This document shows positions 1,800 to 14,928 of a DNA stretch of 16,598 nucleotides, in pieces; the first letter of the stretch is position 1, and the number at the start of each line of letters is the position of its first letter. Source of the stretch: a virus (Duplodnaviria > Heunggongvirae > Uroviricota > Caudoviricetes). The notes under the pieces are model-generated. The model was not told the DNA's origin. It saw only the letters and a program-made list of their open reading frames with translations, and made no database searches. The stretch lies in IMG/VR virus record IMGVR_UViG_2554235127_000006, one strand, 5' to 3'. The translations under genes and the position numbers were made by a program.

Positions 1800-2916
1800 C
1801 CAGACCACCCGTTATGATGTCCGCCGCTTTCTCTGGCAGACTGTATAAATCTTGTGTATCAGCATAATGTCGCGCATTTTCCGCCCAGGCCTGGCGCAAT
1901 GAAGATTGCGTTAACGCTTTGCGTAAAATCTCATTCAATGTTTCCTGGCGGAATGGCTCAGCAATAGCCTCGCCGCAATTGGCATCGACAATATAATGCG
2001 CATAGCCACAAACGGCTGTTGTTAGTACCGGTAATCCTGCAGTTATCGCTTCCAGCAGCACAATTCCCGCCGCTTCCTGGTAGGCAGGATGAAGTAATAA
2101 ATCCGCCGCCGCCATTAATTCCGAGACATCGTTGCGCCCCGAGAAGAAGTGAACATTACTGCGCACGCCGCGTTTTTCTGCCAGCGCCTCAAATTTTCGC
2201 GGTTTATCCTGCCCAACAACATATAGTAATGTGTTGTGGCGCAGCGAATCCGGTAACGAAGCAAGTGCTTCAATGGAACGATCGACACCTTTACGCGTGA
2301 AGTCTGAACCGACCTGCAACAATAAATATTGTTGTTCGGTTATTCCATTCTTCTTACGGAAGATTTCACGGCTATTGGCTGGCTGCTGGCTATATTTACG
2401 ATCAGGATAAATCCCCGGAGGCAGAATATGAAAACGCTCCGCTTCAGTCTGATAATGTTTCTGGAAATCGGCGATTTGCTTATCTGTCAGCATCAGCAGC
2501 TGTGTCGGCTTGCCCTGTTCGAAGGTTGCCCGCTCAAAGGCGGCATAATGGCGATAACGTGACGTCAGGCGATAGAAAAAGCCTTTCTCCTGCGCTACTT
2601 TCTCGGCATAACAAACATCAGCGGCATAATAAACGTCCAGCCCCGGCATTTTATTAAATCCAACGACTCTATCGACGGGGTGTTCACGTAAATGTTTTTG
2701 CACCCAGGCAAAATATTCCGCATTGCGCCCGTGATTGGTATGCGATTTAACCGGCACTTTGATCAGTTCAAATACATCAGGGCATTCGCCTTCCCACGAC
2801 TGGGTATAAACCCGAACATGATGACCTCGGGCGGCGACTGTCTGAGCAATACGCATAAAATCGCGCTGCAAACCGCCAAAGGGAAAATATTTATATAAAC
2901 AAAAAGCAACGATCAT
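1792..2916 (-). CDS. waaG: LPS core glucosyltransferase I WaaG
   Basis: 374-aa [27 protein letters not shown]..., glycosyltransferase. Start ATG (2914-2916) overlaps the waaQ stop in a 4-nt TCAT/ATGA arrangement. Confidence 0.92.
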
Positions 2917-3935
2917 AACGACGTACCTGTCGTGGAGGAGGGAAGTAATTTATCGACAGCTGCAATGACATCTGCCGCCGGAATAACCGAAAGATACATC
3001 TCATTTCGGTCACGCTGATCGCGCGTTGGCATTTCCCGGTAATCTCCCGCCCAGAATTGAATCATGTTATTTGACCAGGGACGCCAGAAAATATGGTCTG
3101 TCGCACCAAACAGCGATATCAGCGGCGTATTAACTGCAGCGGCAATATGCGCCGGTGCGGAATCAACGCCAATAAACAGCTGCGCATGATCGATTAACGC
3201 ACCAAGTTCCGGGAAGGTCACCTTTCCGGCCAGCGCCGTTACTGGTGGCGTCTGGCATCCCTGCGCAATTTCATTGACGCAGGCCAGATCGTCTTTATCT
3301 GGGCCGGACGTCAGAACGACTTCATAACCACGAGCATGTAAGGCATCAATCACAGCGGAAAACTTGGCGTTGTCCCAGCATTTGAAGATTTGCCGCGCCG
3401 TAGGTTGGATAACCACATAATTTTGTCCAACACCAGCGTGATCAAGTTCGCGACGCATACGTTTCCAGCTTGCAGGCGGGTAACTCATGGTTGTCTGCTT
3501 CACCAACGATTCAAGTCCCAATGGCGTCAGCACGGATAAGTTACTTTCCACCACATTTCCACCCTGCAACGGCACCAAATGAGTGAAACTATTACGCCAA
3601 AAAGCAGACTGCCGATGATGATAATCCTGGGAAATTTTCACACGGGCATTTAATAAACGAACCAGTATAGCAATCATCCATTGATCGGTAAGATTAACGA
3701 TAAGGTCATACTTATTGGCACGTAATACCTTGATGAGATGAAAAAAGTTGGCAATTTTTTCTGAGGCTTTTGCTTTTTTATTTTTTATGCCGTAGAGCGC
3801 GTTAATCTCTGGATTTTCAGACAGGATCGGGATGGTGTCCTGATAAAGCAGCACATCGATTTTTGCGTCAGGGTAATTTTTTTTCAGCGAACTAATGACG
3901 GGAGTAGTTAATAACATATCCCCATGAAAACGCAT
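2913..3935 (-). CDS. waaQ: LPS heptosyltransferase III WaaQ
   Basis: Track ORF 2913..3971. The recognised WaaQ sequence begins MRFHGDMLLTTPVISSLKKNYPDA, which is the 13th codon of the track ORF, so the start is placed at 3935. First gene of the minus-strand waa core operon. Confidence 0.88.
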   Translation of the reverse strand: MRFHGDMLLTTPVISSLKKNYPDAKIDVLLYQDTIPILSENPEINALYGIKNKKAKASEKIANFFHLIKVLRANKYDLIVNLTDQWMIAILVRLLNARVKISQDYHHRQSAFWRNSFTHLVPLQGGNVVESNLSVLTPLGLESLVKQTTMSYPPASWKRMRRELDHAGVGQNYVVIQPTARQIFKCWDNAKFSAVIDALHARGYEVVLTSGPDKDDLACVNEIAQGCQTPPVTALAGKVTFPELGALIDHAQLFIGVDSAPAHIAAAVNTPLISLFGATDHIFWRPWSNNMIQFWAGDYREMPTRDQRDRNEMYLSVIPAADVIAAVDKLLPSSTTGTSL

Positions 3936-4020: not shown

Positions 4021-4032
4021 CACGCTACCGCC
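4021..4032 (-). promoter_or_regulatory. ops element (GGCGGTAGCGTG) of the JUMPstart sequence in the waaQ operon leader; RfaH recruitment site
   Basis: Plus strand 4021-4032 reads CACGCTACCGCC, the reverse complement of GGCGGTAGCGTG, an exact ops match. It lies about 90 nt upstream of the waaQ start on the transcribed strand. Confidence 0.8.
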
Positions 4033-4383
4033 CCAGGCTCAACAGCTACCTGAATACTGATACCGCACTGATATTGACGCGCTAGTGTATCACTTCTTTC
4101 GCGGCAATCCGACCCGAATGATTTTTAAGCACATTGTTGATTTTCAATAAAGAAATCAATCAAATAAAATCATTAGCAACCATATTCTTTTACTGTTGCT
4201 CTGCGATTCCTTCCTGCACGTACTGCAGAAATCAATGAATCGCATAAAAATACAAAAAAAGTATAGATGTTCAGCAAGAATTGGCGGGTAAATTGCTATT
4301 TAAGTCAAAAACGGGAAAAGTAATGGTAAAGCCACAGCTAAATACATAGAATCCCCAGCACATCCATAAGTCAGCTATTTACT

Positions 4384-8574: not shown

Positions 8575-9795
8575 ATGAGCCTGGCCGGTAAAAAAATCGT
8601 TCTCGGCGTTAGCGGCGGTATTGCTGCCTATAAAACCCCTGAACTGGTGCGTCGTTTGCGCGATCGCGGGGCCGATGTCCGCGTAGCCATGACCGAAGCG
8701 GCAAAAGCCTTTATCACCCCACTTAGCTTGCAGGCGGTTTCTGGTTATCCCGTTTCCGACAGTCTGCTGGACCCGGCAGCCGAAGCCGCTATGGGCCATA
8801 TTGAGCTGGGAAAATGGGCTGATTTAGTGATTCTCGCCCCTGCCACGGCAGATTTAATTGCCCGTGTTGCAGCCGGAATGGCGAATGACCTGGTATCGAC
8901 GATTTGTCTGGCTACACCTGCGCCTGTAGCCGTGCTCCCCGCCATGAACCAGCAGATGTACCGTGCCGCCGCCACCCAGCATAATTTAGAGGTGCTTGCC
9001 TCGCGTGGTTTGCTCATCTGGGGGCCAGACAGCGGCAGTCAGGCTTGTGGTGATATCGGCCCAGGGCGAATGCTCGATCCGTTAACCATTGTGGATATGG
9101 CGGTAGCGCATTTTTCGCCCGTCAACGACCTGAAACATCTGAACATTATGATTACCGCCGGTCCGACGCGTGAACCGCTCGATCCCGTGCGTTATATCTC
9201 TAATCACAGCTCCGGCAAGATGGGTTTTGCTATCGCCGCCGCCGCAGCCCGTCGTGGTGCGAACGTCACGCTGGTATCAGGTCCGGTTTCATTACCGACG
9301 CCACCGTTTGTTAACCGTGTTGATGTGATGACCGCGCTGGAAATGGAAGCCGCCGTGAATGCTTCAGTACAGCAGCAAAATATTTTTATCGGTTGCGCCG
9401 CCGTGGCGGATTATCGCGCAGCTACCGTGGCCCCAGAAAAAATCAAAAAGCAGGCCACGCAGGGTGATGAATTAACAATAAAAATGGTTAAAAACCCCGA
9501 TATCGTCGCAGGCGTTGCCGCACTAAAAGACCATCGACCCTACGTCGTTGGATTTGCCGCCGAAACAAATAATGTGGAAGAATACGCCCGGCAAAAACGT
9601 ATCCGTAAAAACCTTGATCTGATCTGCGCGAACGATGTTTCCCAGCCAACTCAAGGATTTAACAGCGACAACAACGCATTACACCTTTTCTGGCAGGACG
9701 GAGATAAAGTCTTACCGCTTGAGCGCAAAGAGCTCCTTGGCCAATTATTACTCGACGAGATCGTGACCCGTTATGATGAAAAAAATCGACGTTAA
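8575..9795 (+). CDS. coaBC: Bifunctional phosphopantothenoylcysteine decarboxylase / phosphopantothenate-cysteine ligase CoaBC (Dfp)
   Basis: [28 protein letters not shown]... (flavoprotein N-terminus); 406 aa from the ATG at 8575. The track ORF carries a 24-codon upstream extension. Confidence 0.93.
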
Positions 9796-12520: not shown

Positions 12521-13384
12521 ATGATCCGCAGTATGACCGCCTACGCCCGGCGTGAAATCAAGGGTGAATGGGGGAGCGCAACCTGGGAAATGCGCTCGGT
12601 AAACCAGCGTTATCTGGAAACTTACTTTCGTCTGCCGGAGCAGTTCCGTAGCCTTGAACCTGTCGTTCGCGAGCGTATTCGTTCTCGCCTGACGCGCGGT
12701 AAAGTGGAATGTACCCTGCGCTATGAGCCAGATGTTAGCGCGCAAGGTGAGCTGATCCTCAACGAAAAACTGGCTAAACAGCTGGTAACTGCCGCGAACT
12801 GGGTAAAAATGCAGAGCGACGAAGGAGAAATCAACCCGGTTGATATTCTACGCTGGCCGGGCGTGATGGCAGCCCAGGAGCAAGATCTCGACGCGATTGC
12901 AGCTGAAATTCTCGCGGCGTTGGATGGCACCCTGGATGACTTTATCATCGCGCGCGAAACCGAAGGTCAGGCGCTGAAAGTGTTGATTGAGCAGCGTCTG
13001 GAAGGCGTCACCGCCGAAGTGGTCAAAGTCCGCGCCCATATGCCGGAAATCCTGCAATGGCAGCGTGAGCGTCTGGTAGCGAAGCTGGAAGATGCTCAGG
13101 TGCAACTGGAAAACAACCGTCTGGAGCAGGAGTTGGTTCTGCTGGCACAACGAATTGACGTTGCCGAAGAACTGGACCGCCTCGAAGCGCATGTCAAAGA
13201 GACCTACAACATTCTGAAGAAAAAAGAAGCGGTTGGCCGTCGTCTGGACTTTATGATGCAGGAGTTCAACCGCGAGTCGAACACTCTTGCTTCGAAATCT
13301 ATCAATGCCGAAGTGACGAATTCTGCCATCGAGCTGAAAGTGTTGATTGAGCAGATGCGCGAGCAGATCCAGAATATCGAGTAA
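12521..13384 (+). CDS. yicC: YicC-family protein (YicC/YloC endoribonuclease family)
   Basis: 287-aa ORF MIRSMTAYARREIKGEWGSATWEMRSVNQRYLETYFRLPEQFR..., recognised as YicC. Divergent from rph. Confidence 0.93.
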   Translation: MIRSMTAYARREIKGEWGSATWEMRSVNQRYLETYFRLPEQFRSLEPVVRERIRSRLTRGKVECTLRYEPDVSAQGELILNEKLAKQLVTAANWVKMQSDEGEINPVDILRWPGVMAAQEQDLDAIAAEILAALDGTLDDFIIARETEGQALKVLIEQRLEGVTAEVVKVRAHMPEILQWQRERLVAKLEDAQVQLENNRLEQELVLLAQRIDVAEELDRLEAHVKETYNILKKKEAVGRRLDFMMQEFNRESNTLASKSINAEVTNSAIELKVLIEQMREQIQNIE

Positions 13385-13424
13385 GCTATAAGCAACATTT
13401 AGGACGACGCATAAATCACACCAA

Positions 13425-13448
13425 GCCCGCAACCCAGCGGGCTTTTTT
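13425..13448 (+). terminator. Intrinsic terminator of yicC (GCCCGC-AACCCA-GCGGGC followed by TTTTTT)
   Basis: 6-bp GC stem and 6 T read directly, 41 nt after the yicC stop. Confidence 0.75.
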
Positions 13449-13492
13449 GTTATCATGGGCTATCATAAAGACGCAACAAAGCGCATGATTAT

Positions 13493-13546
13493 GGTGTACA
13501 CAAAGGTGTACCCAATGAGGTTTGGGTACATTGCTTTGGGTACACC
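13493..13546. repeat. Cluster of four GGTGTAC-type motifs upstream of int, including an exact 9-bp inverted pair
   Basis: GGTGTACAC (13493-13501), GGTGTACCC (13505-13513), GGGTACA (13523-13529), GGGTACACC (13538-13546). The second and fourth are exact reverse complements, 24 bp apart. Candidate arm-type integrase or regulator binding sites. Confidence 0.5.
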
Positions 13547-13574
13547 CCCTATTCAAAGTTTGGATATTCGCAAA

Positions 13575-14834
13575 ATGCCAAAACTAACAGACATGCAGAT
13601 CCGCGCATGGATTAAGAGCGGAGAGCGATTCGAGGGGCGGGCAGACGGTAACGGTTTATACCTACGTTACCGTGAAGCCGACAAAACCCCCACATGGAGA
13701 TTCCGCTATAAACTCGCAGGGAAGTCCCGCGCCATGCTAATTGGTTCGTATAGCGAGCTATCACTATCAAAGGCCAGAGAGACAGCCAAAGAGCTATCGG
13801 CTCGCGTTGCGCTGGGCTATGACGTTGCAGGAGAGAAGCAGAAGCGCAAAACCGAAGCACTGGCGAAGATGGAAGCAGAGAAGAACGCTATGCGCGTTTC
13901 AGAGCTTGCCGCTGAATACTTTGAGCGTCAGATACTTCCGAGATGGAAACATCCCGATATCCTTCGCCGGAGAATTGATAAGGATATTAACCCCTGCATT
14001 GGGCATATGAAGGTAGAGGACGTTAAGCCACGCCACATTGACGACATGTTGAAAGGTATCGTTGACCGAGGAGCACCAACGATAGCAACAGATGTATTAC
14101 GCTGGACACGCCGTATCTTTGACTACGGGATAAAACGCCACGCTCTGGAGATAAACCCTTGTTCAGCGTTTGAAGTATCTGATGCTGGTGGTAAAGAGGT
14201 TTCCCGCGACCGTTGGCTAACTCGCGATGAGCTTATCAGGCTATTCGAGGCTATGCGCACCGCAAAAGGATTCAGCCGCCAGAACGAACTGACATTTAAG
14301 CTATTGCTGGCACTATGCGTTCGTAAGATGGAGTTATGCGCCGCACGATGGGAAGAGTTTGATTTAGATGGTGCGGTATGGCATTTGCCGGAAGAACGCA
14401 GCAAAAACGGAGACCCTATTGATATACCTCTACCTTCTCCAGCCGTTGAATGGTTGAGAGAACTACACACCTTTTCATGTAATAGCGCATGGGTGCTTCC
14501 AGCCAGGAAGATGCAAAACAGAATGATCCCACATATTCAGGAAAGCACTTTGCCCGTAGCACTGGCTAAGGTTCGCGCCGAAATGCCGGATGTGCCTAAT
14601 TTCACGATTCACGACTTCCGACGCACCGCACGTACTCATTTAGCAGCGTTGGGTGTTGATCCTGTCGTGGCGGAACGATGCCTCAATCATCGCATTAAGG
14701 GCGTAGAGGGGATTTATAACCGCCATCAGTATTTTGATGAGCGTAAAGCAGCACTGGCACAGTGGGCTGATCTGCTGGTGGCACTGGAAAGCGGAAAAGA
14801 CTACAACGTAACGCCTCTCAGAAGGGCGAACTAA
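13575..14834 (+). CDS. Site-specific tyrosine recombinase, P4-type integrase family
   Basis: N-terminus MPKLTDMQIRAWIKSGERFEGRADGNGLYLRYREADKTPTWRFRYKLAGK is typical of the P4-type arm-binding domain. C-terminus has HDFRRTARTH (HxxR) and GIYNRHQY (catalytic Tyr). Track ORF starts at 13455, but the first 40 codons overlap the terminator T-run and repeat cluster, so I place the start at the ATG at 13575. Confidence 0.88.
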   Translation: MPKLTDMQIRAWIKSGERFEGRADGNGLYLRYREADKTPTWRFRYKLAGKSRAMLIGSYSELSLSKARETAKELSARVALGYDVAGEKQKRKTEALAKMEAEKNAMRVSELAAEYFERQILPRWKHPDILRRRIDKDINPCIGHMKVEDVKPRHIDDMLKGIVDRGAPTIATDVLRWTRRIFDYGIKRHALEINPCSAFEVSDAGGKEVSRDRWLTRDELIRLFEAMRTAKGFSRQNELTFKLLLALCVRKMELCAARWEEFDLDGAVWHLPEERSKNGDPIDIPLPSPAVEWLRELHTFSCNSAWVLPARKMQNRMIPHIQESTLPVALAKVRAEMPDVPNFTIHDFRRTARTHLAALGVDPVVAERCLNHRIKGVEGIYNRHQYFDERKAALAQWADLLVALESGKDYNVTPLRRAN

Positions 14835-14842
14835 CTGAATAG

Positions 14843-14905
14843 ATTGAGCCTAGCCCGACGGGGCGAAAAGCGGAAAGCCTTACCGCCTGGCTCAATTCTT
14901 TTTAA
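14843..14905 (+). terminator. Long-range inverted repeat (ATTGAGCC ... GGCTCAAT) followed by TCTTTTT after int; possible terminator or insulator before the cargo gene
   Basis: 8-bp arms at 14843-14850 and 14889-14896 with a 38-nt interior that has its own short GC palindromes, then a T-rich run at 14897-14903. The structure is unusual, so confidence is low. Confidence 0.35.
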
Positions 14906-14928
14906 GGCAAAGCGTAGAAGGTGACGCA

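Follow-up and report, generated by a model that had tools for sequence, protein, structure and literature searches.

The locus analyzed here raises the question of which protein, if any, recognizes a cluster of four short repeats (positions 13493-13546) located directly upstream of an integrase gene (int, 13575-14834, + strand). A sequence-only reading had described these elements as GGTGTAC-type repeats and interpreted them as protein-binding sites, with integrase arm-type sites named first, followed by an AlpA operator controlling int and by a part of the att region. The analyzed stretch of DNA (16,598 nt, referred to as the window) is E. coli chromosome and comprises the rfa cluster followed by coaBC-dut-slmA-pyrE-rph-yicC. 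Downstream of yicC (12521-13384, + strand), at whose 3' end it is inserted, lies a PICI/P4-like satellite of ~13 kb that carries int, alpA and a primase gene. Within the window, yicC is followed by int, a gene without assigned function, and alpA. A 99.6%-identical island of ~12.7 kb in locus L001 extends past the window end and stops before yicG; its genes beyond the window are an antirepressor gene, an Icd-like gene, a P4-family primase gene and perC. Islands with a related left end at yicC are found in 459 of 5426 complete E. coli genomes (~8%).

To place the repeats relative to the recombination site, the island boundary was located. Homology to island-free genomes such as K-12 ends exactly at the yicC stop codon (13384), so that the untranslated stretch before int measures ~190 bp (13385-13574) and not ~120 bp, as the sequence-only reading had it for the int leader; the boundary itself falls inside yicC. 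In L004 and L086, the 21 nt that end yicC are repeated at attR as CAGATTCAGAAYATYGARTAA, ahead of a K-12-type downstream flank. The two copies of the yicC end are identical only across CAGATTCAGAA, which puts the crossover there, at 13364-13374 of the window. The presumed crossover (core) segment CAGATCCAGAA (approximately 13364-13374, + strand) is thus located inside the yicC codons Q-I-Q-N and marks the left island boundary. In agreement with this position, the divergent block between the window and locus L003 starts at ~13375. Given a crossover at 13364-13374, the island supplies the last 10 nt of yicC including the stop codon (13375-13384, + strand; identity falls from 13375) as a replacement 3' end, together with a new terminator and all sequence up to int.

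The repeats themselves were also considered as crossover core, on the basis of an 18/19 match of 13494-13512 to the right end of L001. This candidate was rejected: in the attR of L004 and L086, the yicC 3' copy and the K-12-type flank are found 70-85 bp beyond the repeat pair, which places the core in yicC. The core CAGATYCAGAA is unrelated to the motif of the repeats. With the core inside the last yicC codons, the repeats belong to the P' arm of attL, at +128 to +172 bp relative to the core. The earlier assignment to the att region therefore holds in the sense of an arm, not in the sense of the crossover core.

The sequence at 13493-13546 reads as had been described, with four GGTGTAC-type repeats in 54 bp: GGTGTACAC (13493-13501), GGTGTACCC (13505-13513), GGGTACA (13524-13530) and GGGTACACC (13538-13546). 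The second and the fourth are exact reverse complements with 24 bp between them (13514-13537), and the first contains the 8-bp palindrome GTGTACAC. The full-length units, however, are longer than first seen and constitute asymmetric 13-mers with the consensus GGTGTACCCAAAG. Four putative arm-type sites result. Sites A (GGTGTACACAAAG, 13493-13505) and B (GGTGTACCCAATG, 13505-13517) are on the + strand and deviate from the consensus by one mismatch each. On the - strand, site C (AATGTACCCAAAC on the reverse strand, 13520-13532) is the weakest copy with three mismatches and site D (GGTGTACCCAAAG on the reverse strand, 13534-13546) the best conserved one with none. The centers of the GTAC cores of A, B, C and D are spaced by 12, 18 and 14 bp; A and B, with centers 12 bp apart, form a 'doubled motif'.

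GGTGTAC occurs three times in the 16.6-kb window when both strands are counted (0.77 expected), each time within the 54 bp, and three of the four occurrences of GGGTACA in the window (0.93 expected) also belong to the array. The repeat cluster is not a chance event. When up to three mismatches to the 13-mer were allowed, the only other hits in the window were located at 8906 and 16214, which is chance level (3.09 expected).

Related islands were collected by an integrase search with one genome per species, which yielded 80 loci. In ~55 of them yicC is encoded immediately upstream on the same strand, with integrase identities of 41-96%. The hosts of these yicC-adjacent loci are Enterobacterales, Aeromonas, Tolumonas, Zobellella, Vogesella, Azonexus, Propionivibrio and Steroidobacteraceae, and thus include Betaproteobacteria (Vogesella, Azonexus and Propionivibrio). 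The intergenic region follows a common layout of stop codon, short phased repeats, hairpin with T run, 10-bp phased array, repeat array and int. Array geometry could be measured in 41 of the ~55 loci. The midpoint of A and B lies +132.5 to +134.5 from the core center in these 41 loci; spacing is mostly 12/18/14 bp, with shifts of 1-2 nt tolerated for C and D.

The presence of individual sites was scored in 40 loci as no more than three mismatches to the consensus of the locus's own site type (see below). Site D is present in all 40 and always in reverse orientation, site A in 36, always forward. Site B is nearly always present in fixed orientation, which is ambiguous in type-3 loci because the A-B spacer is itself palindromic there. 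Site C is recognizable in just 14 of the 40 loci. In most loci the center of D is found 29-34 nt before the int ATG, mainly 33-34 nt, and it is nearer (13-28 nt) in type-4 loci and in L045. The intervening sequence drifts although the spacing of the sites is maintained, as is typical of a protein-binding array. Conservation in homologous islands, on which the first interpretation had been made to depend, is therefore observed in 41 loci. Four int relatives without yicC within 3 kb (L036 from Klebsiella michiganensis, 2870-3000; L031; L044; L063) keep the array as well, L036 with five site copies in another arrangement. Among phage records, no close integrase relative was found, the best showing 33% identity.

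The encoded Int is a tyrosine integrase in which an N-terminal arm-DNA-binding domain is joined by a central (core-binding) and a catalytic domain. Its Pfam domains are PF13356 (residues 4-90, 69 bits), PF22022 and PF00589, and the solved arm-type binding domains of the HPI and HAI7 integrases (3JTZ/3RMP and 3JU0) can be aligned to residues 3-82. All site copies in one locus share one type. Types were defined on the 41 loci, and further loci left out of the definition served as an extra check. Type 1 combines the site GTAC(C/A)CAAAG with LYLR[YHF]R..D..P[ST]W at Int residues 29-42, type 2 the site GTACATAAAG with LY[IL]C[YF]PKNY..PFW, type 3 the site GTACACCTAG with LYLSYRENYQTPVW, and type 4 the site GTACCAAAG with LYLCYR.[SE]F..PKW. 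The window, in which codons 29-42 of int read LYLRYREADKTPTW (13659-13700, + strand), has the type-1 site GTACCCAAAG, as opposed to the type-2 site GTACATAAAG in L003.

The site type matches Int residues 29-42 in 41 of 41 typed loci without exception. The loci left out of the definition fit as well (L063, type 2; L031, type 4; L044 and L036, type 1). GTGCAC-centered variants are found in L043, which combines GTGCACCCAAA sites with a type-1-like stretch, and in L039 and L040, which combine TAGGGGTGCAC sites with a type-3-like stretch. In the Steroidobacteraceae loci, TGTAGCT sites accompany a further 29-42 stretch. More arm types thus exist in distant clades. Only Int residues 31 and 36 partition all four types, as the pairs R/D, C/Y, S/Y and C/F.

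Three pairs of near-identical integrases, drawn from different genera, diverge almost exclusively in residues 29-42 and differ in site type. The Int proteins of the window and L003 are identical at 5 of 14 positions in residues 29-42 and at 298 of 300 in residues 101-400; the corresponding values are 6/14 and 299/300 for L022 and L024 (both Rosenbergiella), and 7/14 and 290/300 for L020 and L026. At the DNA level, L022 and L024 show two divergence troughs, one over the sites and one over codons 29-42, with 93-96% identity between them, a pattern that speaks against the mere joint inheritance of one diverged block. In the comparison of the window with L003, sites and codons fall into a single divergent block that runs from 13375 to ~13915 and ends near codon 113; as they lie only ~150 bp apart, the association could partly be co-inheritance. 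In a single-sequence AlphaFold model of the Int N-terminal domain (low confidence, pLDDT 57), strands at residues 27-33 and 41-47 hint, together with homology, that residues 29-42 may be a 'beta-hairpin' (strand-loop-strand). By sequence comparison, at least four distinct 'arm types' appear to exist among integrases that share the yicC core target and are otherwise up to 99% identical. That the P' sites and Int residues 29-42 form an exchangeable specificity module is a tentative proposal, with somewhat less in its favor than against it.

The same comparison bears on AlpA, likely the excision/directionality factor of the island. The repeats could be AlpA sites, either as the AlpA operator of the int promoter or, within attL, as sites of a directionality factor. 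The AlpA protein of CP4-57 activates its neighboring int gene. In the window, alpA (PF05930, 15920-16123, + strand) is encoded 1.1 kb downstream, and the absence of a consensus promoter before int (see below) would fit an activator-dependent promoter; in addition, AlpA was kept as a candidate binder of an analogous doubled motif by the authors of PMC10111431. However, AlpA hardly differs between the window (type 1), L003 (type 2) and L087 (type 3): 62-63 of 68 positions agree, and the near-identity covers the whole helix-turn-helix. A second AlpA variant, that of L004, is likewise found with site types 1, 2 and 3. Int residues 29-42, in contrast, follow the site type in every case. The proposed AlpA operator is therefore not supported, since the site sequence does not track AlpA, and AlpA sites are a quite unlikely explanation of the repeats. 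Judged from these alignments, AlpA is not the reader of the type-specific bases, although it could bind their invariant GTGTAC part or the neighboring 10-bp phased array.

The opposite island end provides a further line of evidence. In six E. coli loci (L001, L003, L004, L005, L086 and L087), GTAC-N8-GTAC occurs exactly twice per 40-kb locus: one copy is the A-B pair, and the other is located near the right junction in the same orientation. The right-end pair is a tandem with a 12-bp period ~79 bp inside attR, centered 78.5-79.5 bp before the core in the coordinates of L001, L003 and L004. A recurrence of the motif at the right end, as anticipated for arm sites, is thus seen in six complete E. 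coli islands. Sites unlike the core are present on both attP arms, A-D on the P' arm and the tandem pair on the P arm, and the predicted excised circle comprises the pair at -79, the core, the pair at +134, C, D and int. A scan of IMG/VR for the P-arm pair returned eight loci, none of which contains int; in these loci, the pair lies at the same distance from the core, and variable deletions again follow CAGATYCA (see below). In the type-2 islands L003 and L004, the far-end sites are of type 2 too. The P-arm pair of the type-3 islands L086 and L087 resembles that of type-1 islands, so that co-variation at the far end holds only for type 2 versus types 1 and 3; it possibly reflects a single evolutionary event.

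The far-end pair also bears on the possibility that the inverted repeats act as a nucleic-acid structure, namely an extended hairpin of the int leader RNA, or a cruciform of supercoiled DNA, that controls int expression. The segment 13485-13575 folds at -33.5 kcal/mol (z = -3.6), and the equivalent segment is more stable than its shuffled versions (z < -2) in 40 of 40 loci, but any inverted repeat gives such stability automatically. The far-end copy is a tandem pair without an inverted partner. Within the array, the pairing partner changes, D being complementary to A in some loci and to B in others. The repeats of Steroidobacteraceae are mostly direct (four direct in L051, three direct and one inverted in L049), and the arrays of helper-embedded PICIs are direct too. 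An Rfam search at the repeats found no known RNA family, which counts against a structured RNA as well, and the co-variation with integrase residues would be left unexplained. A structural role of the repeats is thus very unlikely.

Clustered repeats directly before a gene, in an island with several genes of no known function, could also be the operator of another island regulator, for example of the gene next to int or of a repressor encoded elsewhere. The gene after int, however, varies within type 2 (321 aa in L003, 216 aa in L004), the motif is confined to the two island ends and does not precede other operons, and the array is kept in distant relatives that carry different cargo. The probability of such an operator is considered minimal.

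Integrase arm-type sites, in contrast to these alternatives, are supported by both the recurrence at the two island ends and the conservation among relatives. The four repeats are most probably arm-type binding sites of the island's own integrase, as far as sequence comparisons can tell. The integrase would be heterobivalent: its C-terminal domains would act on the core in the last yicC codons (~13364-13374), while the N-terminal arm-binding domain would dock on the 13-bp sites of the P' arm (A, B, (C), D) and on two further sites of the P arm, at about -79 bp from the core at the far island end, outside the window. By analogy with the lambda Int paradigm, arm and core would be bridged via bent DNA, with bending proteins between them, to give the complex that integrates or excises the island. 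A candidate site for such bending proteins, or for AlpA as directionality factor, is the segment 13451-13485.

This segment is a 10-bp phased array (+ strand; TATCA at 13451, TATCA at 13461, ACGCA at 13471 and GCGCA at 13481), and its columns are strongly conserved across the Enterobacterales loci. It is regarded as a candidate site of a bending or directionality protein (AlpA or IHF). The TATCAT duplication noted earlier (13451-13466) is real and belongs to this array; the terminator at 13423-13444 that precedes it was ascribed to yicC but is that of the island. In L009 and L016, a similar unit, CTATCA-N4-GACGCA, is found ahead of the terminator as well (compare 13385-13420 of the window). 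In other hosts the phased boxes are replaced, by CTCCG repeats in Aeromonas and by CGTCCA/CTTCCG repeats in Steroidobacteraceae.

The intrinsic terminator upstream of the phased array (13423-13450, + strand) has an 8-bp stem, a 6-nt loop and a T run. It is island-borne, as homology to island-free genomes does not extend past 13384, the end of yicC; the terminator native to yicC in K-12 is displaced beyond attR. The island terminator now ends yicC transcription and shields int. Terminator scans detected it in each of the window, L003, L005 and L086, and a hairpin with T run is present in 41 of 41 loci with differing stem sequences. No consensus structure of the terminators came out of RNAalifold, as the alignment does not keep the stems in register; in the individual sequences the hairpins can be recognized.

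With the terminator ending at 13450 and the ATG at 13575, any int promoter is confined to a gap of 124 bp, of which the array occupies 54 bp. A scan for the sigma-70 consensus between terminator and int found no promoter in the window, L003, L005 and L086, and a conserved TATTCAA box downstream of site D, when inspected, did not yield a convincing -35/-10 pair. The int ATG follows 29 nt after the end of site D. As the four sites fill 54 of the 124 bp, bound integrase should hinder transcription of its own gene. By its geometry only, and by analogy with IntS of KplE1, the integrase bound at the array would probably also repress int. Downstream of int, 9 nt after its stop codon, the window contains a match to RF02996 ('int-alpA RNA', 14843-14908, + strand, 69.5 bits with a gathering score of 35.8), a described but functionally uncharacterized motif between int and alpA genes.

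Arm-type sites are textbook biology, and their existence here is therefore unsurprising. Most likely, the repeats represent a well-known kind of element, the arm sites of a DUF4102-type integrase, in a family for which, to judge from the comparisons made here, they were previously undescribed.

The closest architectural counterpart is a doubled motif, tgTGTATTGCantgTGTATTGCa, reported in 2023 in the attP of helper-embedded PICIs (PMC10111431). It is placed co-oriented at -81+/-2 and +132+/-2 from the attP center, its binding protein was left open, and it was described as a feature unique to helper-embedded PICIs that other PICIs lack (PMC10111431). The sites described here share with it the tandem pair with a 12-bp period, the co-oriented copies at fixed distances (-78.5 to -79.5 and +132.5 to +134.5), and the occurrence in a PICI-type satellite with int and alpA. 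In contrast, the sequences are unrelated (GGTGTACCCAAAG here, TGTATTGC there), the integrases encoded beside TGTATTGC motifs are only 24-28% identical to the present Int, an extra inverted pair (C and D) is present, and the target is yicC instead of phage late genes. IMG/VR loci with TGTATTGC have a pair before int, a third copy near the int ATG and a second pair 10-11 kb away. The same period and the same two distances, combined with unrelated sequences and distant integrases, imply that the doubled architecture is wider than reported: a distant clade of yicC-specific integrases, which is very widespread, has the -80/+132 arrangement too, with a motif of unrelated sequence. For the protein that reads it, the series of site types uncoupled from AlpA provides comparative evidence in favor of the integrase arm domain.

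Similarly to lambda Int with its arm sites P1, P2 and P'1-P'3, the integrase has a separate N-terminal arm-binding domain, and repeated sites unlike the core are found on both arms, five of which are well kept here (A, B, D and two on the P arm, all putative). Unlike in lambda, the arm-binding domain is of the DUF4102/PF13356 type (IntSXT/P4-like group, PMC8138268), and a terminator separates the core from the P' sites, which lie at a much greater distance (+128 to +172).

A precedent for the proposed repression is IntS of KplE1, where the int promoter overlaps attL and negative autoregulation was shown experimentally; phage P4 Int with Vis is cited as the other documented overlap of attL and int promoter with autoregulation (PMC2951348). 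As in KplE1 with IntS and TorI, int adjoins attL and points away from the target gene (~55 loci here), an intergenic region of ~190 bp is filled by (here putative) recombination sites, and the recombination-directionality gene is separate from int. The target, however, is the protein gene yicC and not a tRNA gene, and repression by Int is here proposed from geometry, promoter scans of four loci having found none.

Other islands at the yicC 3' end are MGIVflInd1, MGIVmi1 and SGI1-like elements (PMC8409611) and 'reference PICIs integrated into yicC' (bioRxiv 10.1101/2022.07.18.500453). They share the target and an int that adjoins attL with the present island. Those islands differ in being conjugatively mobilized and in using other excision factors (RdfM), and the text consulted describes no arm-type sites for them.

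The co-variation singles out Int residues 31 and 36 as specificity candidates, and integrases with the same core and different arms would be a useful start for orthogonal integration tools. If the sites and residues 29-42 do form an exchangeable module, they would represent a natural recognition code for the DUF4102 arm domain, in which residues 31 and 36 match the bases after GTAC, and diversification may insulate satellites that compete for one attachment site from the integrases of their rivals, much as immunity groups do.

Some further features of the insertion site were recorded. The displaced yicC 3' end at attR is intact in L004 and L086. Elsewhere it carries deletions of 2 to ~22 nt, all of which begin directly after CAGATYCA (L001, 32819-32834; L003, 39409-39420; L005, 36060-36075; L087, ~32469; also L208, L209 and L211-L214). 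These deletions match the target-fragment 'damage' described for PICIs (PMC10111431). To the right of the island, dinD is absent in L001, the strain closest to the window (32754-33084, compared with K-12, L002), and present in two copies in L087, which indicates that the yicC-yicG interval was rearranged differently among island-bearing strains. Outside the island, a JUMPstart element (RF01707, 55 bits) is located upstream of the rfaQ operon (4021-4059, - strand), which we take to be ordinary for this operon.
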